Part shown: piece by piece, positions 6,928 through 30,058 of the stretch
How positions within the stretch are numbered: position 1 is the first letter of the stretch
Layout: every line of letters begins with the position of its first letter
Assembly (NCBI RefSeq): GCF_058153355.1
Contig: NZ_CM177019.1
Strand: one strand, 5' to 3'
Length of the DNA: 64,000 nucleotides
Program-made: the position numbers and the translations under genes
Notes under the pieces: model-generated
Database searches by the model: none
Seen by the model: the letters and a program-made list of their open reading frames with translations, nothing else
What the model was told of the DNA's origin: nothing

Positions 6928-7045
6928 CGTTTATCTCTCTTGTTGTACCGAATGCGCGAATTCACGCGTTTTATGCTCGCGGGGTAACATGACATGCTCG
7001 AATTACAGAAAAATAACTTTTTTGTTACATTTTTAAGATAGTAAG

Positions 7046-7065
7046 GTGTCAGAAAGATGACAAGG
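7046..7065 (-). promoter_or_regulatory. candidate Pho box in ugpB promoter
   Basis: Minus-strand CCTTGTCATCTTTCTGACAC resembles PhoB direct-repeat consensus CTGTCAT-N4-CTGTCA, about 120 bp upstream of ugpB. Confidence 0.45.
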
Positions 7066-7164
7066 CAGTGACGGCATGGGGGAGGGAAAATGGGAGATGG
7101 GGCACGGATAAGCGGGAAAAATAGAAGGTCTGAATCAAACTCTACAGATTGCTCATCGTTTCAT

Positions 7165-7263
<99 letters not shown>

Positions 7264-7324
7264 AATTTTACATTTGTAACCTGTCTCAAAGGAGTCTTTT
7301 GACTCCTTATCAATCAACGTGTTA

Positions 7325-8038: not shown

Positions 8039-8039
8039 C

Positions 8040-8807
8040 TTATGCCTCACCTAAATAGGCACGGATCACGTCCGGGTTATTACGGATTTGCTCCGGCGTA
8101 CCGTTTGCCAGTGGCGTCCCCTGATTGACCACGTAAATTCTGTCTGAAATCCCCATCACCAGCTTCATATCGTGTTCAATCAACAAGATAGTGGTGTTGT
8201 GATGGTTACGCAGTTCGGCAATCAGCTCATCCAGCTCTTTGGTTTCTTTCGGGTTAAGACCTGCCGCTGGTTCGTCGAGCATTAAAATCTCCGGCTGCGT
8301 TACCATGCAGCGGGCGATCTCCAGACGGCGCTGGTCACCGTAGGCCAGGTTACTCGCCTGACGGTTAGCGTGTTCGAGCAAACCAATGCGCTCAAGCCAG
8401 GTTGCGGCACGGTCGAGCGCTTCACTTTGGGCGCGACGGAAGGATGGCGTTTTCAACAGGCCAGAGAACAGCCCGGTTTTCAGTTGCTGATGCTGCGCCA
8501 CCAGCAGGTTTTCAATCACCGTCATTTCACGGAACAGACGCACATGCTGGAAGGTGCGCACCACGCCCATGCGGGCGATTTGCTGCCCCGGTAAACCTTC
8601 CAGATGCTGATCGCGCAGTAAAATGGTGCCGCCGGTGGGTTTATAGAATCCGGTCAGGCAGTTAAAAACCGTGGTTTTTCCGGCACCGTTAGGGCCGATT
8701 AACGAGACGATCTCCTGCGGGTACAGTTCAAGATTGACGTTATTCACCGCCAGCAGGCCGCCGAAGCGCATCATCAGACCGTTAACAGATAATAATGGCT
8801 GACTCAT
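8040..8807 (-). CDS. livG: branched-chain amino acid ABC transporter ATPase
   Basis: 255-aa ORF, Walker [23 protein letters not shown] signature. Confidence 0.9.
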
Positions 8808-10081
8808 GCCTGCTCTCCTTTCGCTGCGCCGTTTTTCAGCTTGAGTTGCGGGCGCGTCATGGGCAGCAAGCCCTGCGGACGCCAGATCATCATCAGCACC
8901 ATCAAACCACCGAGCATTAACATGCTGTATTCGTTGAAATCACGCATCAACTCGCGCGACACCACCAGCAAAATTGCCGCCAGAATCACCGCAAATTGCG
9001 AGCCCATACCACCGAGCACCACTATCGCCAGCACAAACGCCGATTCGGCAAAGGTGAAAGATTCCGGGCTGACAAAGCCCTGACGCGCAGCAAACAGCGT
9101 TCCGGCAAAACCCGCAAACGCGGCACTGATGGTAAAAGCGGTCAGCTTGATACGACGCGGACTTAAGCCCAGCGAACGACAGGCGATTTCATCTTCACGC
9201 AACGCTTCCCACGCGCGGCCCAGCGGCATTCGCAGTAAGCGGTTAATGACAAACAGGCTTAACACCACCAACAGTAACGCCACCAGGTAGAGGAAGATGA
9301 CGCGATCGGACGGGTCGTATTTCAGGCCAAAGAAATTGCTGAACGTATCCCAGCCGCCTTCGCGGGCGGTGCGACTGAACTCGAGTCCGAAGAGTGTCGG
9401 TTTCGGGATCTGACTGATTCCGTTCGGACCGCCGGTGATTTCCGTGTTATTGAGCAGCAATATGCGCACAATCTCGCCGAAACCGAGGGTAACGATCGCC
9501 AGATAGTCGCCACGTAAGCGCAACACCGGGAAGCCGAGCAGGAAGCCCGCCGCCGCCGCCATCAACCCGGCAATCGGCAAACAGGTCCAGAAGCCAAGAC
9601 CGTAATAGTGATTGAGCAAGGCAAAGGTGTAAGCGCCGATGGCGTAAAAACCACCGTAACCCAGTACCAGTAAGCCAGACAGCCCCACCACCACGTTCAG
9701 CCCGAGGCCGAGGATAATGTAGATCATGGTCAGGGTGGCGATATCCACCGTCCCGCGCGACACCATAAACGGCCACGCCACCGCAAGCACCAACAGTGCG
9801 ACGAGGAACAGCTTTTGCTTCACCGTGGAGCCATCAATCGCGGGCAGAATAAACTTCGGCCCGGAAACGCTTTTCAATCCTTTCTGAAATGCAGGTCGCA
9901 CAAGCTGGAAGAAAAAGACCACCGCAGTGCCAATAAACACCCACTGCCATCGGATGTCTGAAGCCGTATCGACCACCAGTTTGGTGCCGTCCAGCTCCAG
10001 TTGCACACCCATAAAGACGCCCGCGAGAACAAAGAACATGGCGGCAGAGAGCAGCGCCATTGCAATATGCATCGGTTTCAT
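8804..10081 (-). CDS. livM: branched-chain amino acid ABC transporter permease
   Basis: 425-aa polytopic membrane ORF, overlaps livG start. Confidence 0.9.
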
Positions 10082-11004
10082 ACTTTCTCTACCTCCGGGC
10101 GACCCAGAATACCGGTCGGCATCACCAGCAGTACCAGAATCAGCAGGGCAAATGAAACCACATCCTTATATTCCGTACTCAGATAGGCAGAAGAGAGCGC
10201 TTCCGCAATCCCCAGGATCAGGCCACCAATCATTGCCCCCGGAATACTGCCAATCCCACCGAGCACCGCAGCGGTAAAGGCTTTCATCCCGGCCATAAAG
10301 CCGATGTAGGGGTTAATTACGCCATAGAACTGACCGAGCAGCACACCGGCCACCGCCGCCATCGCCGCGCCAATCACAAAGGTCAGCGCAATCACCCGGT
10401 CAGTGTTGATGCCAAGCAGGCTCGCCATTTTCAGATCTTCCGCGCAAGCACGACAGGCGCGCCCCATGCGGGAATAGCGGATGAAAATTGTCAGCGCCAA
10501 CATGGCGAGGAAGGTAACAATCCAGATCACCGCCTGCATGGTGGTAATAGAGGCAGAGAAGTTTTCACTATGGCCCACAACCCACTGACCGTTAAACAGG
10601 CTGGGTAGCGCCACGTCGCGCGAACCTTCGGTCAGGCTGACGTAGTTTTGCAGGAAGATGGACATGCCGATTGCCGAGATGAGCGCAATCAGGCGCTTAG
10701 AGTTACGCACCGGGCGGTAAGCCACACGTTCGATACTCCAGCCATAGGCGCTGGCAATGACGATTGCGCCGACGAATCCCGCCGCCACCAGCAGCCAGCC
10801 GGTATCAATGCCCAGCATCATCAGTGCGGCGATGATCATAAAAGAGACGTAGCTGCCGATCATATAAACCTCGCCGTGGGCGAAGTTGATCATGCCGATA
10901 ATGCCGTAAACCATGGTGTAGCCGATGGCTATCAGCGCGTAGGTACTGCCCAGCGTGACGCCGTTAAACATCTGCTGCAAGAAATACAAAAACTGCTCAG
11001 ACAT
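10078..11004 (-). CDS. livH: branched-chain amino acid ABC transporter permease
   Basis: 308-aa membrane ORF, overlaps livM start. Confidence 0.9.
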
Positions 11005-11051
11005 AAGGTAACCTTTCTAAAACCGCCCGCATTTCACGGGCGGTGGGATGA

Positions 11052-12161
11052 TCACTTGGCTGCCGTCGATGAACCGTCGGCATGCCACTGGAAGACACCA
11101 AAATCAAATCCCTTAAGATCGCCTTTTTCATCCCAGTTCAGCGGCCCAATCACGGTGTTTGCACCGTTAGCTTTTAAATCTTTCACCAGCGCCAGCGGCT
11201 CATCGCTGCCGGTACGCTCAAGGGCAGTCGCCAGAGATTGCACCGCCGCGTAGGTGATCCAGACATATGGCCCGGACGGATCTTTCTTGTCTGCTTTCAG
11301 CGCATCAACGATGCCTTTGTTTGCCGGGTCCTGGTCATAGCGTTTTGGCATAGTGACCAACATACCTTCGGCGGCATCACCAGCAATGTTCGACAGCGAC
11401 GCATTACCCACCCCTTCCGGCCCCATAAACTGAGTTTTCAGGCCAACGGAACGGGCCTGGCGCAGCATCTGCCCCATTTCCGGGTAGTAACCGCCGTAGT
11501 AAACGAAGTCGATGTTTTCTTTTTTCAGGCGGGCGATCAGCGCGGAGAAATCTTTCTCACCAGCGGTAATGCCGTCGAAGAAGACGACGTTGGCATTGGC
11601 TGCTTTCAATCCGTCCTGCACCGAACGCGCCAGCCCTTCGCCATACTGTTGTTTGTCGTGAATGATGGCGATGCGCTGGGGCTTCACCGTCTCAAGAATG
11701 TATTTTGCCGCTGTTGGCCCCTGGGAAGAGTCCAGCCCGGCAGTACGCATGATGTGTTGATAACCGCGTTGAGTCAGCTCCGGGTTGGTCGCCCCCGGCG
11801 AGATCATCAAAATACCTTCATCTTCGTAGATATCTGATGCAGGTTGGGTAGAAGAAGAACACAGATGACCAATAACGTATTTAATGCCGTCGTTAACGAT
11901 TTTGTTGGCGACCGCAACGGCTTGTTTCGGGTCGCAGGCGTCGTCATATTCCACGCCCACCAGCTTATCGCCCTTAATTCCCCCCCTGGCATTAATGTCT
12001 TTAATCGCCTGACGCGCGCCGTTAAATTCCATATCGCCCCACTGGGCAATCGGACCGGACATCGCGCCGACAACGGCAACTTTAATATCGTCGGCCATAG
12101 CGGTGTGTGAAATTGTCAGTGCAATCATCCCTGCGATGATAGTTTTCGCATTCCGTTTCAT
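11052..12161 (-). CDS. livK: leucine-specific periplasmic binding protein
   Basis: Start set at MKRNAKTII (ATG 12159-12161), 369 aa; signal peptide; paralog of livJ. Confidence 0.9.
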
Positions 12162-12584
12162 AGTCAAAAATCCCCATTCGTGATGTTGTGTTGCTTTGTT
12201 TTTATGTGTTAACAAATCAGACTGTACTTTTTTTATACTGCACTGTTTTTGCCTGTCTGATTAAGGGTTTAGCGCAGTATTTTGTGATAATAGCGATTAA
12301 AATCCCTATTTTTCAGTCGATTAAGAACAGATAATATTCTGAATTTATTGATAGATAAACAGAAAAAAGCGCCGTTGTCAGCATAAAATAACGGTACAAA
12401 GGGCGGAATAATTCACTACCATTCAGGGGATTATGCTGGACATTTTTCATTCTCTAATGTTTTTAATTTGTAATTATTGCTGTTAAAAAATTAATCACCT
12501 GCCAAAAGAAATAAAAAAGAGAAAGCCTCCGATTAAATTATTTCGCTACACTGGTTCCACTTTTGTGATTTACACGGGTTCCCC

Positions 12585-12968
12585 ATGAAGCTGACCATCA
12601 TTCGATTAGAACACTTTAGCGACCAGGACCGGATTGATCTGCAAAAGATCTGGCCGGAGTACTCCCCTTCCTCTTTACAGGTTGACGATAACCACCGCAT
12701 CTACGCCGCGCGTTTTAACGAGCGCCTGCTCGCGGCCGTGCGGGTAACCTTAAACGGCACCGAGGGGGCACTGGATTCCCTGCGCGTGCGGGAAGTCACC
12801 CGCCGTCGCGGTGTGGGGCAATATCTGCTGGAAGAGGTTTTGCGTAACAATCCTGGCGTTTCAGGCTGGTGGATGGCAGATGCAGGCGTGGAAGATCGCG
12901 GCGTGATGACGGCGTTTATGCAGGCGCTGGGGTTTACGGCACAACAGGGCGGCTGGGAGAAGCGTTAA
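12585..12968 (+). CDS. panM: PanD maturation factor (GNAT-like)
   Basis: 127-aa ORF between livK and livJ, MKLTIIRLEHFSDQDRIDLQKIWPEY. Confidence 0.8.
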   Translation: MKLTIIRLEHFSDQDRIDLQKIWPEYSPSSLQVDDNHRIYAARFNERLLAAVRVTLNGTEGALDSLRVREVTRRRGVGQYLLEEVLRNNPGVSGWWMADAGVEDRGVMTAFMQALGFTAQQGGWEKR

Positions 12969-13009
12969 TCGTCAAGTTTGATTTCAAAAGTGATGACCAA
13001 CGAGAAATG

Positions 13010-13113
<104 letters not shown>

Positions 13114-13168
13114 GCATGCGTACTCGATATTAGCAATTTGGCGGCAACCCAAAGTTGCCGATTAATGA

Positions 13169-14272
13169 TTACTTCGCATCGGTCGCCGTGCCGTTGGCGT
13201 GCCAGTCAAATACGCCGAACTCAAAGCCTTTCAGATCGCCTTTCTCATCCCAGGTCAGCGGCCCCATCACGGTATCCACGGAGTTCGCTTTCAGGTATTT
13301 GGCGATTTCAGCCGGATCGTCAGACTGATTCAGGCCCGCCTGCAAAGATTGCAGCGCGGCGTAGGTGGTCCAGACGAACGCGCCGCTTGGGTCCTGTTTT
13401 TTCGCTTTGATCGCGTCAACAATTGGTTTGTTCGCCGGAACCTGATCGTAGTTCTTCGGCTTGGTTACCAGCAACCCTTCAGCTGACTCGCCCGCAATGT
13501 TAGACAGCGAGACGTTAGCCACGCCTTCCGGCCCCATAAACTGGGTTTTCAACCCTGCCGCGCGTGCCTGACGCAGGATCTGCCCCATTTCCGGGTGGTA
13601 ACCGCCGTAGTAAACGAAGTCGATATTCTCTTTCTTCAAACGCGCCACCAGCGTTGAGAAATCTTTTTCCCCGGCGGTGATGCCATCAAAGAACACTACG
13701 TTAGCATTGCCTTTCTTCAGGCCGTCCTGCACCGCTCGCGCCAGGCCTTCGCCGTACTGCTGTTTGTCGTGAACGATAGCAATACGCTGCGGTTTCACTT
13801 TCTCAAGAATATATTTCGCCGCCGTCGGCCCCTGGTCGGAGTCCAGGCCGGTGGTGCGCAGGATCAGCTGATAGCCACGGGCGGTCAGCTCTGGCGCGGT
13901 TGCCGCTGGGGTGATCATTAAAATGCCTTCGTCTTCGTAGATGTCAGACGCTGGCTGCGTTGATGAAGAACAGAGGTGGCCAATGACATATTTAATGCCG
14001 TCATTAACGACTTTGTTCGCCACCGCAACCGCCTGTTTCGGGTCACAGGCATCGTCATATTTTACGATTTGCAGTTTGTTGCCTTTCACGCCGCCTTTAG
14101 CGTTAATATCCGCAACTGCCTGCTCTGCGCCAGTAAACTCCTGGTCGCCATACTGGGCCACCGGACCGGACATTGCGCCCACAACCGCGACTTTAATATC
14201 TTCTGCCAGAGCCATATTGCTGAATGCCAGCGCGATACATCCTGCCAGTAACGCTTTACCCTTTATATTCAT
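13169..14272 (-). CDS. livJ: Leu/Ile/Val periplasmic binding protein
   Basis: Start set at [11 protein letters not shown] (ATG 14270-14272), 367 aa, signal peptide. Confidence 0.9.
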
Positions 14273-14489
14273 CCTGAGAATCCCCATTCATCTGGTTATT
14301 ACGTGTGTTGTGATGTTGTTGTTCAGCACTTTATTTCGTTTTATGCATGACTACCCGTGCTTTAGCAGCATACTCTGCTAAAACATACCCGATTTTTATG
14401 ATATTGGAATAGCTATTTTGACAGTTTATTAACAATCTGCGTGGGGATTGGCGTTTTGTCGGAGGGGGTAATTGATTATTGCAGAGGTC

Positions 14490-14535
14490 CAAAAAACAAA
14501 AACCCCGGACTCTCATCCAGGGTTCTCTGATTAAT
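14490..14535 (-). terminator. rpoH intrinsic terminator
   Basis: Minus-strand hairpin CCCTGGA..TCCGGGG followed by TTTTTGTTTTTT immediately after rpoH stop. Confidence 0.6.
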
Positions 14536-14543
14536 AGTGGAAA

Positions 14544-15398
14544 TTACGCTTCAATAGCAGCGCGAAGTTTTTTCATCGCGTTCTTTTCCAGCTGGCGCAC
14601 ACGCTCAGCGGAAACACCGTAACGGTCAGCCAGTTCCTGCAACGTGGACTTGTTGTCTTCGTCCAGCCAGCGCGCGCGGATGATATCCTGGCTACGCTCG
14701 TCCAGACCTTGCATCGCGTCGGTCAGACGGTTTGCCGCCTGTTCTTCCCAGTTATCATCTTCAATGCCGTCGGCAAAGTTGGACGATTTATCCTGCAGAT
14801 AAAGCACCGGAGCCATCGGCTGGCTGTCGGAATCGTCATCGGAAGACAGGTCAAAGGTCATGTCCTGTGCCGCCATACGCGATTCCATCTCACGTACGTC
14901 TTTGCTGGTTACGCCCAGTTCACGGGCCACCATTTCGACTTCATCCTGATTAAACCAGCCCAGACGCTGCTTGGTTTTACGCAGGTTGAAGAACAGTTTG
15001 CGCTGCGCTTTGGTGGTCGCAACTTTGACGATACGCCAGTTGCGCAGAACGTATTCGTGGATCTCTGCTTTGATCCAGTGAACGGCGAAGGAGACCAGGC
15101 GCACCCCCACTTCCGGGTTAAAACGGCGCACTGCTTTCATCAGGCCGATGTTACCTTCCTGAATCAAATCCGCCTGTGGCAGGCCATAGCCCGCATAATT
15201 ACGAGCAATATGAACAACAAACCGCAGGTGAGACAGGATCAGCGTTTTTGCTGCTTCCAGATCGCCATGGTAATGCAGCTTTTCAGCCAGCGCCCGCTCC
15301 TCGTCAGCCGACAACATCGGCCACGCGTTAGCTGCCCGGATGTAGGAATCCAGGTTGCCAACTGGGGCTAAAGCTAAACTTTGCATTTTGTCAGTCAT
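14544..15398 (-). CDS. rpoH: RNA polymerase sigma-32 (heat shock sigma factor)
   Basis: 284-aa [27 protein letters not shown]..., sigma-70 family regions. Confidence 0.95.
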
Positions 15399-15491
15399 TC
15401 AAATCCTCTCAATCGATATCTTCTGGCGCTTCAGTGGTAGCAACAACTGTGCCAGAGCTTAAGAGCAACGAGGTTATCATTCACTGTTTTA

Positions 15492-15518
15492 TCAGACCGT
15501 GATTTTATCCACAAGTTC
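15492..15518 (-). promoter_or_regulatory. sigma-E type promoter upstream of rpoH (P3-like)
   Basis: Minus-strand GAACTT-N16-TCTGA matches sigma-E consensus, about 100 bp upstream of rpoH start. Confidence 0.55.
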
Positions 15519-15642
15519 AATGCAACGCTGTGAATAAATTACGCACAAAATGTGACATAGAGATGAAATACCGGGAAGAGACAACGGGGTCTCTTTCCCT
15601 GCTACGGAACCCATTGCAGGGAAAGAGTATAACACGCTTTTA

Positions 15643-16701
15643 TTATTCAGGCGTAAAGTGGCGTAAATGTTGTACCGTGGCAAGCCAGGCTGCCACCCAG
15701 CCAATCATCGAACACACCAGCAGCAAAAGCAGACATTCATCGAAAGATAAGCCATTGATATCAAACCTCGTTCCGAAAACCTGTGCCACTTCCGCAACCG
15801 CCGAAGACAAACGCAGGACCAGAATTTCCGACAAAATTAATGACAGCAATGCGCCAGAAAATCCCAGCAATGCGCCACCGTACAGGAATGGGCGCAGGAT
15901 GAAACCATCTGTCGCACCAATCAGTTTCTGTACGTTAATGGAGTCACGGCGAGCAAAGATGCTCAGACGCACACTGTTACCGATGACGAGGAACACTGCC
16001 GCCACCATCAATACGCCGATCATTGCCGAAACGCGCCCGACCAGCCCGGTCAACGCCGCCAGACGGGCAAACCAGCTGTCATCCATTCGCACTTCGTCAA
16101 TGCCGTTGATCTGGGTGATACGATCGCGCAAGGTATTCAGTGACTCGGTCCCCTGAAAATCGAGTTTCGGGATTACCACCGCCACTGCCGGAAGCGGGTT
16201 TTCCTCCAGCATATCCAGCGCACCACCAAAACCAGACCAGTTACGGAACTCGCCCAGTGCGTCTTCACGAGAAAGATAGTTTACTTTCTCTACGCCTTGC
16301 TCGGCCTGCAACTGTGCCACCACACCCGCAGCGGCGTCATCATCCAGCGTTTTTTGCAGATAAACAGTGATTTGCGGTGACGGATAATACTGCGTCGCCG
16401 CCTGGTTAACGTTTTTGTACACCATATAACAGACGCTGGGCAGCGTCAGGGAGATGGCGATAACCATCACCGTTAAAAACGTGGCGAACGGTTTACTTTT
16501 CAGATCCTGCAATGCGCCGTGGAAGGCATAGCGCACCTGTTCGTTGAAAACGTTGGTTTTGCGATTTACCGGTTTTGGCGAGGATTTCGCCCGTTTTGGC
16601 GCGTTACGACCGCCGTCGCCAGAGCCGCCGACCGATTTACGGAAGCGATCCAGACGCCCGCCAAACTGCCGGATATGATTGATTGCATCGCGCTTATTCA
16701 T
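15643..16701 (-). CDS. ftsX: cell division ABC transporter permease-like protein
   Basis: Start set at MNKRDAINH (ATG 16699-16701), 352 aa; overlaps ftsE stop. Confidence 0.9.
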
Positions 16702-17362
16702 GGCCCACGCCTCCATGCAAGTGACCATCGCTCAGGGTGAGCATGCGATAGGAACGCCGCGAAATCAGGTTGATGTCGTGCGTTGCCATCAATACGGTTA
16801 CCCCAACGCGGTTAAATTCTTCAAACAGACGTAGAATTCCTTCTGACAACGCGTCGTCAAGGTTACCGGTCGGTTCATCCGCCAGCAGTACCGCGGGTTT
16901 GTTCACCACCGCGCGGGCAATGCCAACACGCTGTTGTTCACCGCCGGAAAGCTGAATAGGGAAGTTCTTCGCTTTGTCCAGTAGCCCGACTTTATCCAGC
17001 GCCGCCGATACACGACGACGAATATCGTCACCGCTGGCACCGGCGATAATCAGCGGGATCGCGACGTTATCGTAGACAGTACGGTCCATCAGTAGATGGT
17101 GATCCTGGAAAATCATGCCAATCTGGCGGCGCAGAAACGGAACTTCACGGTTTTTCAGACGCGTGATGTCATGGCCGCTAAACCAGATTTTCCCGGCGCT
17201 GGGCCGCTCAATCCCACAGATCAGCTTCAGGAGGGTACTTTTCCCTGCGCCGGAATGACCGGTCAGAAACGCCATCTCACCCGGCTGCATATGGAACGTA
17301 ACGCCCTGCAGCGCCTGTCTCCCACCGAGATAAGCCTTGCTGACATGTTCAAAGCGAATCAT
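16694..17362 (-). CDS. ftsE: cell division ABC transporter ATPase
   Basis: 222-aa ORF, Walker [24 protein letters not shown] signature. Confidence 0.9.
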
Positions 17363-17364
17363 TG

Positions 17365-18903
17365 TTAATCCTCTCGGGCAAAAAGTGCCTCTATAAAGTC
17401 GTCCGCTTTAAACGGACGCAAATCCTCAATACGTTCGCCGACACCAATGTAGCGGATAGGGATACCAAACTGGTCAGCCACCGAGAAAATTACCCCGCCT
17501 TTCGCCGTGCCGTCCAGTTTCGTTAGCGTGATGCCGGTTAAGCCAACGGCTTCGTGGAACAGTTTGGCCTGGCTTACTGCATTCTGCCCGGTACTGGCGT
17601 CGATAGTCAGCATAACTTCATGCGGAGCTTCAACGTCGAGTTTCTTCATCACGCGGACGATTTTCTTCAACTCTTCCATCAAGTGCGATTTGTTCTGCAG
17701 GCGTCCGGCGGTATCGGCAATCAGAACGTCGATGTTACGCGCTTTAGCGGCCTGAATGGCGTCGAAGATAACAGAAGCAGAATCCGCACCGGTATGCTGG
17801 GCAATCACCGGAATATTATTACGCTGCCCCCAGACCTGAAGCTGTTCAACCGCTGCTGCACGGAAAGTATCGCCCGCCGCCAGCATCACTGATTTACCCT
17901 GCTGCTCAAACTGACGCGCCAGCTTACCGATCGTCGTGGTTTTACCCACACCGTTGACGCCCACCATCAGGATCACGAACGGCGTTTTACCTTCAACGTT
18001 CAGCGGTTCATCGACTTTCGCCAGAATCTCACCCATCTCTTCTTTCAGTAGGCCATAGAGCGCCTCGGCATCACGAAGCTGCTTGCGGGTCGCACCTTCT
18101 GTCAGATTGGTGATAATTTTACGCGTGGTTTCCACGCCCACATCGGCGATGAGCAATTGCTCTTCCAATTCTTCAAACAGATCATCGTCGATTTTTTTAC
18201 CGCGGAACAGGCTGATAAATCCGGAACCGAGGTTTTCTTTGGTTTTTAACAGACTGCGTTTCAGGCGCGCGAAGAAACCTTCTTTGGTCGGTTTTTCCTG
18301 CTCCTGAGCGATTTCTTCCACCGGCTGCTCTTCTTCTGCCGGAGGAACCACCATCACCGCCTCTTCTGCCGCTTCGGCAGCCAGCGCCTGTGCTTCCAGC
18401 TCTTCGTCGGTGATTTCGTCTTTAGCCGCTTCTTCTTCCGCCGCTTCGACAATCTCTACGGTTTCCGCTTCGGCCTGCCACTCTTCTGGCGAAACCTCTT
18501 CGGCTTTGACGTCTTCCGGCAACGGCAGCTCTTCACGCTCGATAGCCACAGGCTCTGGCGTAACTTCAGGTTCAATGACTGACGCTGGCGTTTCTTCAAC
18601 TATCGTTTCCGGCTCAGTAATAACTTCCGGTTCAGCAACAGCTTCAGGCTGCGCTTTTTCACTTTCAGCAACCTGTTCAGTAACTTCCACAACGTCGGCA
18701 GCAAAAGTTTCCGCCTCGGCTTCAGTATGCGCCTGCGGCTGCTCTTCAACGGCTTGTTCAGAAGCCTTCGCAGGCTCTTGCGCCGGAACGATTTCTTCTA
18801 CAACCGGTTGTTCGTTCTGGACTTCTGTCTCTTTTTCCGGGGTCTGCTCTTTTTGACCAAAGCCCAGCCAGGAAAAAAAGCCACGTTTTTTTTCTTTCGC
18901 CAT
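17365..18903 (-). CDS. ftsY: signal recognition particle receptor
   Basis: 512-aa ORF: acidic N-terminal A domain then NG GTPase domain (GVNGVGKTTTIGKLA, DTAGR). Confidence 0.9.
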   Translation of the reverse strand: MAKEKKRGFFSWLGFGQKEQTPEKETEVQNEQPVVEEIVPAQEPAKASEQAVEEQPQAHTEAEAETFAADVVEVTEQVAESEKAQPEAVAEPEVITEPETIVEETPASVIEPEVTPEPVAIEREELPLPEDVKAEEVSPEEWQAEAETVEIVEAAEEEAAKDEITDEELEAQALAAEAAEEAVMVVPPAEEEQPVEEIAQEQEKPTKEGFFARLKRSLLKTKENLGSGFISLFRGKKIDDDLFEELEEQLLIADVGVETTRKIITNLTEGATRKQLRDAEALYGLLKEEMGEILAKVDEPLNVEGKTPFVILMVGVNGVGKTTTIGKLARQFEQQGKSVMLAAGDTFRAAAVEQLQVWGQRNNIPVIAQHTGADSASVIFDAIQAAKARNIDVLIADTAGRLQNKSHLMEELKKIVRVMKKLDVEAPHEVMLTIDASTGQNAVSQAKLFHEAVGLTGITLTKLDGTAKGGVIFSVADQFGIPIRYIGVGERIEDLRPFKADDFIEALFARED

Positions 18904-19052
18904 TTGCGACTACACTCCTCGCTGTTGCTTCATGGCACAGCGTTAACGCTATGTACATAGCAGCTAAAAAAATGATGAAATAGTCTATCACTTAACTTAA
19001 TTCACATCACCGCCTGCAAGTATGTGTTATCTGGCGGATTGAGCAATTTATC

Positions 19053-19649
19053 ATGAAAAAACCGAATCATTCCGGCAGCGGCCAAATCCGCATTATTGGC
19101 GGGCAGTGGCGAGGCCGTAAACTCCCGGTTCCTGATAGCCCAGGCCTGCGCCCCACCACCGACCGCGTACGCGAAACGTTGTTTAACTGGCTGGCTCCGG
19201 TCATTGTTGATGCCCAATGTCTGGATTGCTTCGCCGGGAGCGGCGCGCTGGGGCTGGAAGCGTTATCGCGCTACGCTGCGGGGGCCACGTTGATTGAGAT
19301 GGATCGCGCGGTTTCTCAGCAGTTAATTAAGAATCTGGCGACACTAAAAGCAGGCAATGCACGCGTGGTGAACAGCAACGCGATGTCATTCCTGGCGCAA
19401 AAAGGCACACCGCATAATATCGTGTTTGTCGATCCACCGTTCCGCCGTGGCTTGTTAGAAGAGACGATAAATTTACTGGAAGATAACGGCTGGCTGGCTG
19501 ACGAAGCCCTGATTTATGTCGAAAGCGAAGTCGAAAACGGTCTGCCCACTGTTCCGGCGAACTGGTCATTACATCGGGAAAAAGTGGCGGGTCAGGTGGC
19601 TTACCGCCTGTATCAACGCGAAGCACAAGGAGAAAGTGATGTTGATTAA
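19053..19649 (+). CDS. rsmD: 16S rRNA m2G966 methyltransferase
   Basis: 198-aa ORF with DPPF motif (FVDPPFRRG) typical of N6/N2 methyltransferases. Confidence 0.85.
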   Translation: MKKPNHSGSGQIRIIGGQWRGRKLPVPDSPGLRPTTDRVRETLFNWLAPVIVDAQCLDCFAGSGALGLEALSRYAAGATLIEMDRAVSQQLIKNLATLKAGNARVVNSNAMSFLAQKGTPHNIVFVDPPFRRGLLEETINLLEDNGWLADEALIYVESEVENGLPTVPANWSLHREKVAGQVAYRLYQREAQGESDVD

Positions 19650-19908
19650 TATTGGTCGTGTGTTAATGCTCTGCGTTTGGGGATTTTTAATCCTCAACCT
19701 GGTGCATCCCTTCCCGCGTCCGCTGAATATTTTCGTTAACGTGGCGCTGATTTTTACCGTGCTGATGCATGGTATGCAGCTGGCGCTATTGAAATCCACT
19801 TTGCCGAAAGATGGCCCGCAGATGACCACCGCCGAAAAGGTGCGGATTTTCCTTTTCGGCGTGTTTGAACTGCTGGTCTGGCAGAAGAAATTTAACGTTA
19901 AAAAATAA
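19639..19908 (+). CDS. yhhL: small inner membrane protein (DUF1145)
   Basis: 89-aa frame from ATG 19639 (MLINIGRVLMLCVWGF...), overlapping rsmD stop; two hydrophobic helices. Confidence 0.7.
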   Translation: MLINIGRVLMLCVWGFLILNLVHPFPRPLNIFVNVALIFTVLMHGMQLALLKSTLPKDGPQMTTAEKVRIFLFGVFELLVWQKKFNVKK

Positions 19909-19910
19909 CC

Positions 19911-20270
19911 TTATTGTTTGCTGACAAAGCTGACAAAGCGCGTTCCTTTATAGCTCAGCGTACCTTTATCGCCCACTGTCAGGGCATGGTACTGCTGGGC
20001 GTCGAGGCGAAACGTCTGTTCCATTCCTCCGCTTTGCGGTTTGAAGCTCGCCTCATAGCGCATGCTGGTACCAGCCGGTGTCACTTCCTGCTGGCGCGAA
20101 CGGCGATCGTTAATCGGTTTTTCCCGCTTATTGCTCACCACCACCAACTTTTGCTGGAGTGGCGCTATATCATTATCAGCTTTTTCCCGTCGCTGTTGCA
20201 TAAAACGAAACGATGCGGCGACGATAATTAAGCCAATGATAACAATAAAGAAAAGAGGTGGTTTGCTCAT
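19911..20270 (-). CDS. yhhM: DUF2500 membrane-anchored protein
   Basis: 119-aa ORF with N-terminal TM helix. Confidence 0.75.
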   Translation of the reverse strand: MSKPPLFFIVIIGLIIVAASFRFMQQRREKADNDIAPLQQKLVVVSNKREKPINDRRSRQQEVTPAGTSMRYEASFKPQSGGMEQTFRLDAQQYHALTVGDKGTLSYKGTRFVSFVSKQ

Positions 20271-20410
20271 CTTTATCCCTCATCGGAAAATGCGGAAATA
20301 AGCATACCCTGCCAGTTATGGTGTTGTCATCCGTCCACCCTCGCCACTAAACTGGAAACAAGACCGTAGGCATTCCGCTTACGAAAAAATAACGAATTCA
20401 AGGAACTAAG

Positions 20411-21037
20411 ATGCTTTGGTCGTTTATCGCAGTCTGTCTTTCCGCATGGCTATCTGTGGATGCATCGTATCGTGGGCCAACCTGGCAACGCTGGGTGTTT
20501 AAACCGTTAACCCTTCTTCTCCTGCTGTTACTGGCATGGCAAGCGCCGATGTTCGACGCCATTAGTTATCTGGTGCTGGCAGGGCTGTGCGCTTCACTGC
20601 TGGGCGATGCGCTAACCCTGTTGCCACGTCAACGTCTGATGTACGCCATCGGCGCGTTTTTCCTCTCGCACCTGCTGTACACTATCTATTTCGCCAGTCA
20701 GATGACGCTCTCTTTCTTCTGGCCTCTGCCACTGGTGTTGCTGGTTCTGGGCGCGCTGTTACTGGCGATTATCTGGACGCGTCTGGAAGAGTATCGTTGG
20801 CCTATCTGCACGTTTATCGGCATGACGCTGGTGATGGTATGGCTGGCAGGTGAACTGTGGTTCTTCCGTCCGACCGCTCCGGCACTCTCTGCGTTTGTCG
20901 GCGCTTCGTTGCTGTTTATCAGTAACTTTGTCTGGCTGGGTAGTCACTATCGCCGACGCTTCCGTGCGGACAACGCGATTGCCGCCGCTTGTTATTTTGC
21001 CGGTCACTTCCTCATCGTCCGCTCGCTGTATCTCTGA
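20411..21037 (+). CDS. yhhN: YhhN-family inner membrane protein
   Basis: 208-aa polytopic membrane ORF. Confidence 0.8.
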
Positions 21038-21043
21038 TAAAAC

Positions 21044-21075
21044 TTGACTCTGGAGTCGACTCCAGAGTGTATCCT
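21044..21075 (+). promoter_or_regulatory. zntA promoter with ZntR (MerR-type) operator
   Basis: TTGACT (21044-21049), 20-bp spacer containing perfect dyad ACTCTGGAGTCGACTCCAGAGT (21047-21068), TATCCT (21070-21075); long spacer is typical of MerR-family promoters. Confidence 0.8.
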
Positions 21076-21109
21076 TCGGTTAATGAGAAAAACTTAACCG
21101 GAGGATGCC

Positions 21110-23308
21110 ATGTCGACTCCTGACAATCACGGCAAGAAAGCCCCTCAATTTGCCGCGTTCAAACCGCTACCCACGGTTCAGAACGCCAACGACTGTTGCT
21201 GCGACGGCGCATGTTCCAGCACGCCAACGCTCTCTGAAAACGTCTCCGGCACCCGCTATAGCTGGAAAGTCAGCGGCATGGACTGCGCCGCCTGCGCGCG
21301 CAAGGTAGAAAATGCCGTGCGCCAGCTTGCAGGCGTGAATCAGGTGCAGGTGTTGTTCGCCACCGAAAAACTGGTGGTGGATGCCGACAATGACATCCGT
21401 GCCCAGGTTGAATCTGCGGTGCAAAAAGCGGGCTATTCCCTGCGCGATGAACAGTCCGCCGACGAACAACAAGAATCACGCCTGAAAGAGAATCTGCCGC
21501 TGATTACGCTAATCGTGTTGATGGCAATTAGCTGGGGGCTAGAGCAGTTTAATCATCCGTTCGGGCAACTGGCGTTTATCGCGACCACGCTGGTTGGGCT
21601 GTACCCGATTGCTCGTCAGGCATTACGGCTGATCAAATCCGGCAGCTACTTCGCTATTGAAACCTTAATGAGCGTAGCCGCTATTGGTGCGCTGTTTATT
21701 GGCGCAACGGCTGAAGCTGCGATGGTGTTGCTGCTGTTTTTGATTGGTGAACGACTGGAAGGCTGGGCCGCCAGCCGCGCGCGTCAAGGGGTCAGCGCGT
21801 TAATGGCGCTGAAACCGGAAACCGCCACGCGCCTGCGTAATGGCAAGCGTGAAGAGGTAGCAATTAACAGCCTGCGTCCGGGCGATGTTATCGAAGTTGC
21901 GGCAGGTGGGCGTTTACCTGCCGACGGTAAACTGCTCTCGCCCTTTGCCAGTTTTGATGAAAGCGCCCTGACCGGCGAATCCATTCCGGTGGAGCGCGCG
22001 ACGGGTGATAAAGTTCCTGCAGGCGCCACCAGCGTAGACCGTCTGGTAACGCTGGAAGTGCTGTCAGAACCGGGTGCCAGCGCCATTGACCGGATTCTGA
22101 AACTGATCGAAGAAGCCGAAGAGCGCCGCGCGCCCATTGAGCGGTTTATCGACCGTTTCAGCCGTATTTACACGCCAGCGATTATGGCCGTCGCCCTGCT
22201 GGTGACGCTGGTGCCACCGCTGCTGTTTGCCGCAAGCTGGCAGGAGTGGATTTATAAAGGGCTGACGCTGCTGCTGATTGGCTGCCCGTGTGCGCTGGTG
22301 ATCTCAACACCTGCGGCGATCACCTCCGGGCTGGCGGCAGCAGCGCGTCATGGGGCGTTGATTAAAGGCGGTGCGGCGCTGGAACAACTAGGTCGTGTTA
22401 CCCAGGTGGCGTTTGATAAAACCGGCACGCTGACCGTCGGTAAACCGCGCGTTACCGCGATTCATCCGGCAACGGGTATTAGTGAATCTGAACTGCTGAC
22501 ACTGGCAGCGGCGGTCGAGCAAGGCGCGACGCATCCACTGGCGCAAGCCATCGTACGCGAAGCACAGGTTGCTGAACTCGCCATTCCCGCCGCCGAATCA
22601 CAGCGGGCGCTGGTCGGGTCTGGTATTGAAGCACTGATTAACGGTGAGCGCGTGTTGATATGCGCTGCCGGAAAACATCCGGCTGTTGCATTTGCTGGTT
22701 TAATTAACGAACTGGAAAGCGCCGGGCAAACGGTAGTACTGGTGGTGCGTAACGATGAAGTGCTGGGTGTCATTGCATTGCAGGATACCCTGCGCGCCGA
22801 CGCCGCAACTGCCATCAGCGAACTGAGCGCCCTGGGTGTCAAAGGGGTGATCCTCACTGGCGATAATCCACGCGCCGCGGCGGCAATTGCCGGGGAGTTG
22901 GGGCTGGAATTTAAAGCGGGCCTATTACCAGAAGATAAAGTCAAAGCGGTGACCGAGCTGAATCAACATGCGCCTCTGGCGATGGTCGGTGACGGTATTA
23001 ACGACGCGCCAGCGATGAAAGCCGCCACCATTGGGATTGCAATGGGCAGTGGCACAGATGTGGCGCTGGAAACCGCCGATGCAGCATTAACCCATAACCA
23101 CCTGCGCGGCCTGGCGCAGATGATTGAACTGGCACGCGCCACTCACGCCAACATCCGCCAGAACATCACCATTGCGCTGGGGCTGAAAGGGATCTTCCTC
23201 GTCACAACGCTGTTAGGGATGACCGGACTATGGCTGGCGGTGCTGGCAGATACGGGTGCGACGGTGCTGGTGACGGCGAATGCGTTAAGATTGTTGCGCA
23301 GGAAGTAA
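21110..23308 (+). CDS. zntA: Zn/Cd/Pb-exporting P1B-type ATPase
   Basis: 732-aa ORF with N-terminal GMDCAAC metal-binding motif, CPC, DKTGTLT phosphorylation site, GDGINDAP. Confidence 0.95.
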   Translation: MSTPDNHGKKAPQFAAFKPLPTVQNANDCCCDGACSSTPTLSENVSGTRYSWKVSGMDCAACARKVENAVRQLAGVNQVQVLFATEKLVVDADNDIRAQVESAVQKAGYSLRDEQSADEQQESRLKENLPLITLIVLMAISWGLEQFNHPFGQLAFIATTLVGLYPIARQALRLIKSGSYFAIETLMSVAAIGALFIGATAEAAMVLLLFLIGERLEGWAASRARQGVSALMALKPETATRLRNGKREEVAINSLRPGDVIEVAAGGRLPADGKLLSPFASFDESALTGESIPVERATGDKVPAGATSVDRLVTLEVLSEPGASAIDRILKLIEEAEERRAPIERFIDRFSRIYTPAIMAVALLVTLVPPLLFAASWQEWIYKGLTLLLIGCPCALVISTPAAITSGLAAAARHGALIKGGAALEQLGRVTQVAFDKTGTLTVGKPRVTAIHPATGISESELLTLAAAVEQGATHPLAQAIVREAQVAELAIPAAESQRALVGSGIEALINGERVLICAAGKHPAVAFAGLINELESAGQTVVLVVRNDEVLGVIALQDTLRADAATAISELSALGVKGVILTGDNPRAAAAIAGELGLEFKAGLLPEDKVKAVTELNQHAPLAMVGDGINDAPAMKAATIGIAMGSGTDVALETADAALTHNHLRGLAQMIELARATHANIRQNITIALGLKGIFLVTTLLGMTGLWLAVLADTGATVLVTANALRLLRRK

Positions 23309-23700: not shown

Positions 23701-24926
<1,226 letters not shown>

Positions 24927-24956
24927 CATGCCTGCAATCTGGGAAACCGGGGTAGA

Positions 24957-24988
<32 letters not shown>

Positions 24989-25142
24989 AGGGCATTGAAC
25001 TCGTAGGCATGATAAGACGCGACAGCGTCGCATCAGGCATTGCGCACCGTATCGCCAGATGCAGCTTGAACGTTTTATCCGTCCTACAAACCGGTTGCAA
25101 GCCGCAAAATTGAGCGCGATCGGTCCGCTAGCCTGATTCACC

Positions 25143-25388
25143 TTACCCCGATTTGCGAATCAAATAACGATAAGGCAGTCCATCGGTCTCTTTCGCAACC
25201 AGTTCGTGTTCCATAAAGGTACAAAACCCAGGAATATCGCGTGTCGTCGCCGGATCGTCAGCAATAATCAGCAACGTTTCACCTGGCTGCATATTGCGCA
25301 CAGTTTTGCGCACCATCATTACTGGTTCCGGGCAGCGCAGGCCAAGTGCGTCGAGTGTGTGGTCAGGGCTGGAAAAGAGATCGGTCAT
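25143..25388 (-). CDS. tusA: sulfur carrier protein TusA
   Basis: 81-aa ORF with CPxP motif (LRCPEPVMM). Confidence 0.9.
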
Positions 25389-25608
25389 TTTCTTCTCATC
25401 ACATAAAAAAACGGCGCTAGTTTACGCCCTGTGAGTCCGTAAGCAAACCAGGTTAACGATTGCGTGAAAATTAACCATTGCATTGTCAACGTAAAGCAGT
25501 ATCATGCGGCGGCTCGAAAAAAGGGTCAGCACGTTATTATGTTAAGGTAACAGACGTGTCGTACGTATTGGGTTCCCTCACCCCAATGGTTAATCAAAAA
25601 GGTACAAT

Positions 25609-26274
25609 ATGAACGTTTTCTCGCAAACTCAACGCTATAAGGCGTTGTTCTGGTTATCGTTATTTCATCTGTTGGTGATCACCTCCAGTAACTATCTGGT
25701 TCAGCTTCCCGTATCCATTTTTGGTTTCCATACCACCTGGGGCGCGTTTAGCTTTCCGTTTATTTTCCTTGCTACCGACCTGACTGTGCGTATTTTTGGC
25801 GCACCGCTGGCCCGTCGTATCATCTTTGCGGTGATGATCCCGGCGTTACTGATCTCCTACGTCATCTCGTCGCTGTTCTATATGGGTTCCTGGCAGGGAT
25901 TCGGCGCGCTCGCCCACTTCAATCTGTTTGTCGCCCGTATCGCCACCGCCAGTTTCATGGCCTACGCGCTGGGGCAAATCCTCGACGTGCACGTTTTTAA
26001 CCGCCTGCGTCAGAGTCGTCGCTGGTGGCTGGCACCGACGGCTTCCACCCTGTTTGGTAACGTCAGCGACACGCTGGCCTTCTTCTTCATTGCCTTCTGG
26101 CGCAGCCCAGATGCCTTTATGGCTGAACACTGGATGGAAATCGCGCTGGTCGATTACTGTTTCAAAGTGTTAATCAGTATCGTTTTCTTCCTGCCAATGT
26201 ATGGCGTATTACTCAATATGCTGTTGAAAAGACTGGCAGATAAATCCGAAATCAACGCTTTGCAGGCGAGTTAA
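25609..26274 (+). CDS. yhhQ: queuosine precursor transporter
   Basis: 221-aa polytopic membrane ORF. Confidence 0.85.
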   Translation: MNVFSQTQRYKALFWLSLFHLLVITSSNYLVQLPVSIFGFHTTWGAFSFPFIFLATDLTVRIFGAPLARRIIFAVMIPALLISYVISSLFYMGSWQGFGALAHFNLFVARIATASFMAYALGQILDVHVFNRLRQSRRWWLAPTASTLFGNVSDTLAFFFIAFWRSPDAFMAEHWMEIALVDYCFKVLISIVFFLPMYGVLLNMLLKRLADKSEINALQAS

Positions 26275-26346
26275 AGGTTCGTTATCAGAGTTGTGATAAG
26301 ATGGATGAATGAGCCGTTATGGCCGTTTATCGAAAGGAAGAAGTCA

Positions 26347-26904
26347 ATGCGCAATCTGGTTAAATATGTCGGAATTGGCCTGCTGGTTATGGGGCTTGCG
26401 GCCTGTGATGATAAAGACACTAACGCTACGGCGCAGGGTTCGGTCGCGGAAAGTAACGCTACCGGGAATCCCGTCAACCTGCTTGATGGCAAGTTAAGTT
26501 TCTCGCTGCCAGCGGATATGACCGACCAGAGCGGTAAGCTGGGAACGCAGGCTAATAACATGCATGTCTGGTCCGACGCCACCGGGCAAAAAGCAGTCAT
26601 CGTCATCATGGGCGATGATCCGAAAGAAGATCTGGCGGTGCTGGCGAAGCGCCTGGAAGATCAGCAACGTAGCCGCGATCCGCAGCTGCAAGTGGTAACC
26701 AATAAAGCCATTGAGCTGAAAGGTCACAAAATGCAGCAGTTAGACAGCATTATCTCCGCGAAAGGCCAGACGGCGTACTCTTCCGTTATTCTGGGTAACG
26801 TGGGTAATCAACTGCTGACCATGCAAATTACGCTGCCAGCTGACGATCAGCAAAAAGCACAGACCACCGCAGAAAACATCATTAATACGCTGGTTATTCA
26901 GTAA
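26347..26904 (+). CDS. dcrB: periplasmic lipoprotein DcrB
   Basis: Start set at [20 protein letters not shown] (lipobox LAAC), 185 aa. Confidence 0.85.
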
Positions 26905-26907
26905 GTT

Positions 26908-28125
26908 TTAAGATGATGAGATGGCCTCAGGTACTTCCACCGGAGGCCGTTTTTTTAATCGCCACGTCAGTAATAACGCGATTGCGACCAGTCCCGCCGC
27001 CGCCAGATAAATCACCGGGACGCCCGCCCAACTCATCACCAGCCCAGCCAGTGGTCCGGTCACGCCAAGCGATAAATCCATAAATACGGTGTAAGTTGCC
27101 AGCGCCGCCCCCTGATTCTGCTGCGGCACTGCTTTTACCGCCACTACGCCCAATGCCGGGAACACCAGCGAAAACCCCGCCCCCGCGAGTAAGACGCCAA
27201 TTTTCGCCATCCACGGCATAGTCGCCACGCCAACCAGTAGCAGGCCGATTATCTCAACGCTAAAGCAGAGCATCGCCACATTTAAGCCGCCGATACGGTT
27301 AATGCCGTTAGGAAATAACAAACGCGTACCGACAAACGCACAGCTAAACAGCGTCAACGCGAAAGCCGCACCGTCCCAACCTTTAGCGTCATAAAACAGC
27401 GTGATAAAAGTGGCGATAACGCCAAATCCGGCGGAAGCCAGTGCCAGCGCCATGCCGTACAGCCAGACGCGCCCAAGCACCGCGCGAAACGGCAGCGGTT
27501 TGCCTTTACTGGCTTTTACCGTCGGACGCGGGATCGCCAACAAAATGGCCACCAGCGCCACGCCCATAATGATTAACGCTAACGCCTGCAAGCCGCCCCA
27601 GTGATAAAACACGACACCTAACGGCGCACCCATCGCCATCGCCCCGTAAGTGACAATGCCGTTCCACGAAATCACCCGCCCGATATGCAGCGAACCCACC
27701 ACGCCAACGCCCCATAGGGTCGATCCCGTTCCGGCAAAACTTTGCCCAATCCCAAGGATCACGCGCCCCAGGCACAGTAATAACAGGCTGATGACGGGCA
27801 GACTGGCGGTTAATCCTGCCGTCAGATACCCCAAACCGCTCAAAAAGCAGCCGCATAAACCGAAGACGACAATCTTTTTAGGTCCCAGCAAATCGGCGTA
27901 ACGTCCGGCATGAGGGCGGCTCAGCAAGGTGGCGAAATATTGCAGGCTGATAACCAATCCTGCCCAGAAAGCGCTAAAGCCCATCACATCATGGACATAG
28001 CCCGGTAATACAGCGAGCGGCAACCCGATGGTGAGGTAGCTGGCGAAGTTAAACATGACAATGGAGACAATGCGCAAATTCAGGCGCAATCCGTTTAGCG
28101 CGGGTTCGGCTACGGGTTCGGGCAT
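26908..28125 (-). CDS. yhhS: MFS transporter
   Basis: Start set at MPEPVAEPALNG (ATG 28123-28125), 405 aa, 12-TM profile. Confidence 0.85.
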   Translation of the reverse strand: MPEPVAEPALNGLRLNLRIVSIVMFNFASYLTIGLPLAVLPGYVHDVMGFSAFWAGLVISLQYFATLLSRPHAGRYADLLGPKKIVVFGLCGCFLSGLGYLTAGLTASLPVISLLLLCLGRVILGIGQSFAGTGSTLWGVGVVGSLHIGRVISWNGIVTYGAMAMGAPLGVVFYHWGGLQALALIIMGVALVAILLAIPRPTVKASKGKPLPFRAVLGRVWLYGMALALASAGFGVIATFITLFYDAKGWDGAAFALTLFSCAFVGTRLLFPNGINRIGGLNVAMLCFSVEIIGLLLVGVATMPWMAKIGVLLAGAGFSLVFPALGVVAVKAVPQQNQGAALATYTVFMDLSLGVTGPLAGLVMSWAGVPVIYLAAAGLVAIALLLTWRLKKRPPVEVPEAISSS

Positions 28126-28256
28126 GAGGATCACCACATTTTTACAACAGTGTTTCATTTTTACCACGTGCTGACGTGAAAATCAGCAGTAAGAATCAGA
28201 ATATTGCTGGCGTGACTCCCGCTACACTTAATACAAAAAGTCACAAGGAAGCCCCA

Positions 28257-29306: not shown

Positions 29307-29360
29307 GGCGACAAGTGATACGATACGCACTTTCATTTTCCATTAAACGTTGGCCCTGAT

Positions 29361-29948: not shown

Positions 29949-29993
29949 TCGGCCCATCCGACTGCCCATCTATTGATCCAGAACAGGTTATCA

Positions 29994-30021: not shown

Positions 30022-30058
30022 TTATTTCCGCCATCTATTTTAATCCATTGGGGTTACC

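Follow-up and report, generated by a model that had tools for sequence, protein, structure and literature searches.

An intact Escherichia ftsY gene with a probably genus-typical long form of the acidic A domain

The ftsY gene described here lies in a 64,000-nucleotide stretch of Escherichia DNA (contig NZ_CM177019.1), referred to below as the window, and encodes an SRP receptor of 512 amino acids, compared to 497 amino acids in E. coli K-12 MG1655. The gene is intact, and the acidic, presumably disordered A domain that it encodes is very probably the long version typical of the genus, not one lengthened by local expansion. This would reverse the direction assumed in a sequence-only reading of the same DNA, as the most parsimonious account of the aligned sequences is that the K-12 gene is contracted and the window gene is not expanded.

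The gene, its neighbors and its domains

On every feature tested, the window protein is a member of the FtsY family. It scores 385.9 bits against TIGR00064, the NCBIfam ftsY equivalog model (cut-off 260.7, residues 237-508), and stays under the cut-offs of the Ffh and SRP54 models. The family architecture is present, with an N domain (helical bundle) matched by Pfam SRP54_N at residues 225-290 (56.1 bits) and a G domain (SRP54-type GTPase) matched by Pfam SRP54 at residues 308-508 (268.2 bits). The nucleotide-binding motifs GVNGVGKT, DTAGR and TKLD are legible in the translation, and residues 211-512 align end to end with the solved E. coli FtsY-NG structures. The genomic context is also that of enterobacterial FtsY, with an ftsY-ftsE-ftsX operon and a divergent rsmD in the order annotated in K-12; the ftsY annotation is carried by 5,425 E. 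coli genomes. The genes and domains are as follows:

15643-16728: FtsX ORF, downstream of ftsY
16694-17362: FtsE ORF, downstream of ftsY
17365-18903, minus strand: ftsY coding sequence, 512 codons plus stop, SRP receptor (ORF list and family models)
17368-18273, minus strand: NG (GTPase) domain, with T272 and T307 where K-12 has S and A (codon comparison)
18238-18276, minus strand: membrane-targeting amphipathic helix at the A/N junction, residues 210-222, equivalent and identical to K-12 195-207 (alignment; role from PMC2928010)
18274-18903, minus strand: A domain, residues 1-210, acidic and low-complexity, with no Pfam match (composition; first domain hit at residue 225)
18862-18903, minus strand: N-terminal basic lipid-binding segment, residues 1-14, MAKEKKRGFFSWLG, identical to K-12 (alignment; role from PMC5094494)
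19053-19649: RsmD ORF, upstream of ftsY

An Rfam scan of the window placed no RNA element in or beside ftsY. A 148-residue antisense ORF at 18410-18856 on the plus strand was considered and set aside; it is a serine-rich mirror image of the Glu/Ala codons, and nothing marks it as a gene.

The closest point of reference is the FtsY of K-12 (structures 2yhs and 5gad), which has been used in nearly all biochemical work. It is the product of the same gene, in the same operon position (rsmD / ftsY-ftsE-ftsX) and with the same start codon, and 484 of the 497 aligned residues are identical between the two proteins. What sets the window protein apart is found mainly in the A domain, which carries 11 substitutions as well as the additional residues described below. 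In the NG domain, 45 codons differ from K-12, but 43 of these differences are synonymous and the remaining two (2 of 302 residues) are conservative, while in the A domain 14 of the codon differences are synonymous and 11 are not. A linker under weak constraint, joined to a GTPase under strong constraint, would be expected to show this pattern. From the near-identical NG domain we infer that the GTP-dependent interaction with Ffh/4.5S RNA and the targeting activity are likely retained.

The composition of the A domain is similar in the two proteins. The window A domain is 28% Glu, 9% Pro and 11% Val with a net charge of -50, and the K-12 A domain (195 amino acids) has a net charge of -46. Within the central region, the window has 29.9% Glu and a net charge of -53, compared to 30.2% and -49 in K-12, and the inserted segments account for 3 more acidic residues. 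Variation in this part of the protein is common in the family. FtsY has between 427 and 558 amino acids in the 77 Enterobacteriaceae species compared, and the position of the GFFARLK motif varies from residue 153 to residue 255 in the 74 species where it was found, which places the length variation N-terminal of GFFARLK and the junction.

Anatomy of the length difference from K-12

The 15 extra residues relative to K-12 resolve, in both protein and DNA alignments, into three in-frame differences of 4, 10 and 1 codons in the central A domain. The sequence-only reading had assigned the extra length to the Glu/Pro/Val-rich N-terminal region, and the mapped indels bear this out, all of them falling in the acidic A domain; the peptide given there as an example, EPEVITEPETIVEETPASVIEPEVTPEPVA, is found at residues 91-120. 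The insertions correspond to K-12 positions 88-101. The features that separate the two alleles are:

About 18630-18641, minus strand: 12-bp segment encoding VAEP, residues 89-92, absent from K-12-type alleles (DNA and protein alignments)
18592-18629, minus strand: cluster of substitutions between the two indels, EVITEPETIVEE here and EVVAQPEPVVEE in K-12 (alignment)
18562-18591, minus strand: 30-bp segment encoding TPASVIEPEV, residues 105-114, absent from K-12-type alleles (DNA alignment and direct-repeat search)
18388-18390, minus strand: codon for Gln172, lacking in K-12, which has ACG in place of GCACAG (alignments)

Both of the larger segments are associated with short direct repeats. The 12-bp segment is bracketed by copies of CTGAA that lie 12 bp apart, and the 30-bp segment opens with ACGCCAG, the same 7 bp recurring directly after it. 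The roughly 36 bp between the segments are heavily substituted relative to K-12, and 5 of the 11 non-synonymous differences in the A domain fall at window residues 95-101.

The single-codon difference has another distribution. The Gln172 codon lies just beyond the range covered by the sequence-only reading (18400-18903) and is present in the window, in O157:H7, E2348/69 and SMS-3-5, and in all non-coli Escherichia examined. We read this one of the 15 residues as a 3-bp deletion in the 497-residue form of K-12, not as a gain in the window, and 14 residues separate the window allele from the common E. coli form.

Long forms in the genus and a haplotype block shared with E. fergusonii

E. fergusonii, E. 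marmotae, E. ruysiae and E. whittamii have FtsY proteins of 512 amino acids with both segments, and both segments are also present in SCPM-O-B-8794, a divergent genome labelled E. coli (512 amino acids), and in Escherichia sp. E1V33 (509 amino acids). E. albertii (504 amino acids) and Escherichia sp. MOD1-EC7003 (486 amino acids) contain the 4-codon segment and two of the ten codons of the second segment, and the 12-bp segment occurs in every non-coli Escherichia genome examined. A scan of species representatives provided E. whittamii, E. albertii and three other Escherichia, with no representative of E. coli, E. fergusonii, E. marmotae or E. ruysiae; the sequences of these four species came from look-ups of protein clusters and their encoding contigs. 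E. marmotae, E. ruysiae and E. fergusonii are also the names on 512-residue FtsY proteins in the 90% cluster of the window protein itself. Lineage-specific substitutions distinguish the long forms from one another, and the DNA of the variable stretch is 78-81% identical between the window and E. whittamii, SCPM-O-B-8794 and E1V33. An identity this low among long forms suggests that they are old, and the occurrence of both segments across Escherichia species, each with its own substitutions, argues that the long form is not only old but typical of the genus.

Most parsimoniously, then, a length of 512 amino acids would be the ancestral state in the genus, and the E. coli form of 497 or 498 amino acids would be derived by contraction. 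This polarity is a matter of parsimony over a few species representatives in a genus that recombines, with Salmonella and Citrobacter too diverged to root the segment, which cannot be aligned in either. A gain of the 10-codon segment after the split from E. albertii is conceivable, as E. albertii and MOD1-EC7003 lack eight of its ten codons. Under contraction, the 498-residue form would have arisen from the long form by the in-frame loss of two stretches, one of 12 bp and one of 30 bp, between the short direct repeats, through either replication slippage or unequal exchange. The 497-residue form of K-12 would have lost one further codon after the 498-residue form arose.

Within E. coli, the long form is a minority allele. 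Among 40 genomes evenly spaced out of 5,425 matching E. coli genomes, ftsY is 1497 bp in 22, 1494 bp (the annotated length in MG1655) in 13, 1488 bp in three, and 1539 bp and 1377 bp in one each; O157:H7 and E2348/69 have the 498-residue form. A 105-bp probe specific for the long allele matches 49 of 5,426 complete E. coli genomes (0.9%). Over the whole gene, 18 of these 49 are at least 99% identical to the window, and the rest, including SMS-3-5, are 96.8-98.1% identical. FtsY alleles of 458, 495, 497, 498, 506 and 512 amino acids coexist in the species. Like the window allele, those of 458, 495, 498 and 506 amino acids have in-frame indels confined to the acidic central A domain and an intact NG domain, but they go back to separate events, namely a 24-bp tandem duplication and deletions of 9 bp and 120 bp, which lie elsewhere or run in the opposite direction. 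A junction probe for the 506-residue duplication allele found 19 genomes in the band of at least 99% identity, the only usable band, since two-piece matches of single-copy genomes were otherwise joined to full coverage; in the separate whole-gene comparison, the band of 90-95% identity holds 25 genomes, which may not all carry the duplication. The exact window protein is already public, encoded on 381 contigs and named FtsY of E. coli, and the window allele is an ordinary, catalogued natural variant with nothing new in kind.

The surroundings of the gene point to a history shared with E. fergusonii, and the region concerned is:

1-23305: haplotype block (ggt, ugp, liv, rpoH, ftsXEY, rsmD, zntA), 97.6-98.3% identical to E. 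fergusonii (BLAST and alignment)

The right edge of the block lies near position 23305, and its left edge is beyond position 1. From 7365 to 23305, the window is 98.0% identical to E. fergusonii, 98.7% to E. coli EC42405, and 96.0% to both K-12 and SMS-3-5. Left of the liv operon to position 1, identity is 97.6% to E. fergusonii and 96.1% to SMS-3-5 (4179-7110 only), and over the wider stretch 3352-23303, K-12 is 95.8% identical. Right of zntA, the window genome is E. coli-like and unlike E. fergusonii: across 25152-29299, identity to E. fergusonii is 84.5% compared to 98.5% for E. coli EC42405, with K-12 at 95.35% (25152-34635) and SMS-3-5 at 97.3% (24983-34181).

The same relationship is seen in ftsY itself. 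The FtsY of E. fergusonii ATCC 35469 (CAQ90914.1) has 512 amino acids and a variable segment identical to that of the window. Two E. fergusonii FtsY proteins share 509 and 508 of 512 residues with the window protein, differing by three to four A-domain substitutions, and the DNA is about 99% identical across ftsY. The DNA of the NG domain is about 99.1% identical to E. fergusonii ATCC 35469, compared to 94.8% for K-12. Neighbor-joining trees of ftsY group the window and related E. coli sequences with E. fergusonii, at a divergence of 0.9%; in the NG domain, 3.5-5.2% separates this group from the main E. coli clade. E. coli chromosomes encode the exact window protein, and so do contigs with a flank 99.5% identical to the E. 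fergusonii type strain. The SMS-3-5-type FtsY (WP_001040624.1) also has 512 amino acids, sharing 504 of 512 residues and 99.1% of the variable-segment DNA with the window, but it is a mosaic of a fergusonii-type A domain and a main-clade NG domain, the latter 3.8% divergent from the window.

These comparisons suggest that the long allele belongs to a shared block of at least 23 kb that was moved or retained by homologous recombination. The window genome may have kept an old haplotype, or it may have acquired the allele through homologous recombination with an E. fergusonii-like lineage. A specific import from E. fergusonii into E. coli, rather than transfer in reverse or the persistence of an old E. 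coli haplotype, is a tentative reading that we consider somewhat less probable than its alternatives taken together. Every sequence named E. fergusonii that was seen has 512 amino acids and is near-identical to the window, the full fergusonii-type gene occurs in only 18 of the 5,426 E. coli genomes, and the high identity to E. fergusonii across positions 1-23305 collapses right of zntA, where the match is to E. coli; all of this is as an import would leave it. However, in yhhM-rsmD and in ftsE the identity of E. fergusonii to K-12 is 96.9-98.1%, above the 89-96% of the cryptic-clade species, and a divergence of about 2% implies that the exchange was not recent. As E. fergusonii is nearer to K-12 there than the cryptic-clade species are, the copy that it carries may be an E. 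coli-type one. The unusual closeness of E. fergusonii to all E. coli throughout the block fits a transfer in either direction, the direction being judged here from local identities.

Effect of the longer linker, repeat structure and meaning

Studies of K-12 FtsY give a basis for judging what the additional residues might do. In K-12 the A domain is intrinsically disordered, with residues 38-140 highly dynamic by NMR and making no contact with lipid, and lipid binding is instead carried out by residues 8-18 and the helix at the A/N junction (PMC5094494). Contacts of the acidic central region with SecYEG are transient, non-specific and electrostatic (PMC5094494). FtsY-NG+1, in which the A domain is reduced to Phe196, complements FtsY depletion in vivo, and its targeting in vitro is only 26% less efficient (PMC2928010). 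Binding of FtsY-NG+1 to SecY is less stable, and the A domain improves SecY binding (PMC2064314). The A domain has been termed "non-essential" and the N-terminal domains "low conserved" (PMC2780400).

By alignment, 14 of the extra residues should sit in the disordered, non-lipid-binding stretch that matches K-12 residues 38-140. Our best inference is that the window receptor should work as that of K-12 does, with a central tether about 8% longer and an effect close to neutral, because the insertions fall midway along the dynamic stretch, the composition is kept, both lipid-binding helices are identical and the NG domain has only two conservative changes. The sequence-only reading had called the difference "probably neutral", and the K-12 work leads to the same expectation. 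A small quantitative effect of the longer A domain is conceivable, given that the A domain improves SecY binding (PMC2064314).

It has also to be considered whether the long linker is adaptive, such that a longer and slightly more acidic tether alters the reach of FtsY or its affinity for SecYEG and is kept by selection in some lineages or hosts. The electrostatic contribution of the central A domain to SecYEG binding, the three more acidic residues (central net charge -53 compared to -49), the exact length of 512 amino acids kept in several species despite sequence change, and the recombination of the long A-domain segment onto different NG backgrounds, as in the SMS-3-5 mosaic, are all compatible with selection. 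Yet the allele is rare in E. coli (0.9% of complete genomes) and coexists there with other indel alleles (458, 495, 497, 498 and 506 amino acids), FtsY length varies from 427 to 558 amino acids family-wide, and nearly the whole A domain can be removed with a modest loss of function. The sources (human, cattle, dog, pig, goat, chicken and water) form no ecological pattern, and we regard adaptation as unlikely. More improbable still is a broader proposal, that ftsY length alleles are not subject to free drift but mark, or help drive, the movement between E. coli and E. fergusonii of the ggt-ugp-liv-rpoH-ftsYEX-zntA block (at least 23 kb); a longer, more acidic tether would then engage SecYEG differently enough for selection to act, favoring its repeated recombination onto other NG backgrounds.

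The sequence-only reading had called the extra length consistent with repeat expansion in a low-complexity domain, which is considered here as a recent expansion of tandem repeats, produced by slippage and specific to the strain. The region does have degenerate periodicities of 18 bp and 30 bp, and Tandem Repeats Finder reports one weak array (period 18, 2.4 copies, 76% matches, score 53); at the 30-bp spacing (family D4) identity is 76% and 67%. A near-identical head-to-tail copy of adjacent sequence was looked for in the region and not found, the best internal matches being 67-79% identical. The copy of ACGCCAG behind the 30-bp segment could be taken as a trace of duplication, but ACGCCAG and CTGAA are microhomologies at which slippage can either delete or duplicate. 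True recent duplications do happen at this spot elsewhere, as in the 506-residue allele of strain 1190, where a 24-bp tandem duplication gives EVVAQPEA twice. In the window, however, the direct repeats are far from identical, the segments recur, with substitutions particular to each lineage, in four or more other Escherichia species and also occur in 49 complete E. coli genomes, and the heavy substitution between the two indels is not what a recent duplication would give. A recent expansion is therefore highly improbable, and of the sequence-only interpretation the length, the location and the near-neutrality stand while the expansion in the window strain does not. A duplication in the distant past, in an ancestor of Escherichia, is possible given the degenerate 30-bp periodicity and the state of Salmonella and Citrobacter, which lack the segment or cannot be aligned there.

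An artefact of start codon, annotation choice, sequencing or assembly has next to no chance of being the explanation, as no support for it was found, the ATG at 18903 (with AGGAG about 10 nt upstream) and the first 39 residues are shared with K-12, the extra bases are internal and in frame, and the identical protein is encoded on 381 independent contigs and the long segment in 49 complete genomes. The alignment with reference strains called for in the sequence-only reading settles the two ways in which its length comparison might have failed. The reference is not of the same length, as both the MG1655 annotation and the full-length PDB chains 5gad_l and 2yhs_A (497 residues covered) agree with the 497 amino acids that it gave, and a different start codon is ruled out by an N-terminus that is the same as in K-12, residues 1-39 being identical in the window and eight E. 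coli genomes including K-12.

The biological weight of the long allele is small, with the block shared by E. coli and E. fergusonii a mildly interesting by-product; population geneticists may care about the allele as a marker of a recombinant block common to the two species. For work on the receptor, differences in ftsY length should not be called annotation errors, and residue numbers taken from K-12, such as F196 or the membrane-targeting helix at 195-207, shift by +15 in the window allele. The central A domain of FtsY tolerates in-frame indels, and the 497-residue FtsY of K-12 would best be seen as one slightly shortened allele and not as the norm of the genus.

A block shared with Escherichia fergusonii

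The gene ftsY lies within a stretch of the window in which identity to E. fergusonii is 97.6-98.3% by DNA comparison, while identity to K-12 and SMS-3-5 is about 96%. The stretch comprises:

1-23305: block ggt-ugp-liv-rpoH-ftsXEY-rsmD-zntA, with its right edge near the end of zntA and its left edge beyond position 1

To the right of zntA (window 25152-29299), identity to E. fergusonii drops to 84.5%, and E. coli EC42405 remains 98.5% identical. This pattern on either side of zntA indicates that positions 1-23305 belong to a block common to the two species, either shared or recombinant. Between livJ and panM, a contig with E. fergusonii context (CP057104.1, 15885-16685) carries an insertion of a TacA-like antitoxin gene and a GNAT acetyltransferase toxin-like gene, a pair that neither the window nor the E. 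fergusonii type strain has.

Insertion sequences and RNA elements

An IS621-family (IS110-like) insertion sequence occurs twice in the window, and both copies encode a 326-aa DEDD transposase:

23706-24982: copy 1
about 48987-50194: copy 2

The copies are inverted relative to each other, about 24 kb apart and 97% identical, and the gene order flanking them remains collinear with K-12. Copy 1 sits in REP-like sequence between zntA and tusA, a site at which locus comparison found no IS621-family copy in E. coli EC42405. Rfam matches were also found:

51690-51837 (+): group II intron domain, RF02012
53920-53996 (+): group II intron domain, RF00029
61411-61493 (+): AgrB antisense sRNA, RF02891 (95.7 bits)

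Within window 51690-53996, the two intron domains bracket a 580-aa ORF (52173-53915, +), which presumably specifies the reverse transcriptase/maturase of the intron. AgrB belongs to the dinQ-agrAB locus, of which the match may be part.

Mosaic and length alleles of ftsY

The two parts of FtsY, the acidic A domain and the GTPase NG domain, have different affinities in the 512-aa alleles of the SMS-3-5 type. When compared with window 17365-18903, the A domain of these alleles joins the cluster formed by the window and E. fergusonii, at a divergence of 2.0%, and their NG domain groups with the main E. coli clade. These alleles are mosaics, and the placement of the two domains in different clusters implies a recombination breakpoint within ftsY.

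Length also varies among E. coli strains. Strain 1190 has a 506-aa FtsY with a perfect 24-bp tandem duplication in the A domain (EVVAQPEA twice). In HCM-27C-1 and PSJ-07, other in-frame A-domain alleles bring the protein to 495 aa through a 9-bp deletion and to 458 aa through a 120-bp deletion that takes out 40 residues. The central A domain of E. coli ftsY is an indel hotspot. Inside the 10-codon segment TPASVIEPEV of the long form, E. albertii and Escherichia sp. MOD1-EC7003, whose genomes are otherwise dissimilar, both lack 8 codons, and the gap lies in the same place (VVES--------E[AV]TPEPV). Either slippage has recurred at the same repeats, or lineages have exchanged the sequence.

One further ORF overlaps this region:

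18410-18856 (+): Ser-rich ORF of 148 aa, antisense to the ftsY A-domain coding region

This ORF mirrors the run of Glu/Ala codons, and nothing supports it as a gene.

The K-12 one-codon deletion

K-12 FtsY carries a one-codon deletion (ET-A versus EAQA), equivalent to window 18388-18390, within Asp152-Ala161, the sole stretch of the central A domain found by NMR to be transiently helical (PMC5094494). K-12 FtsY, the reference protein for biophysics, is thus itself a minority allele at that spot.
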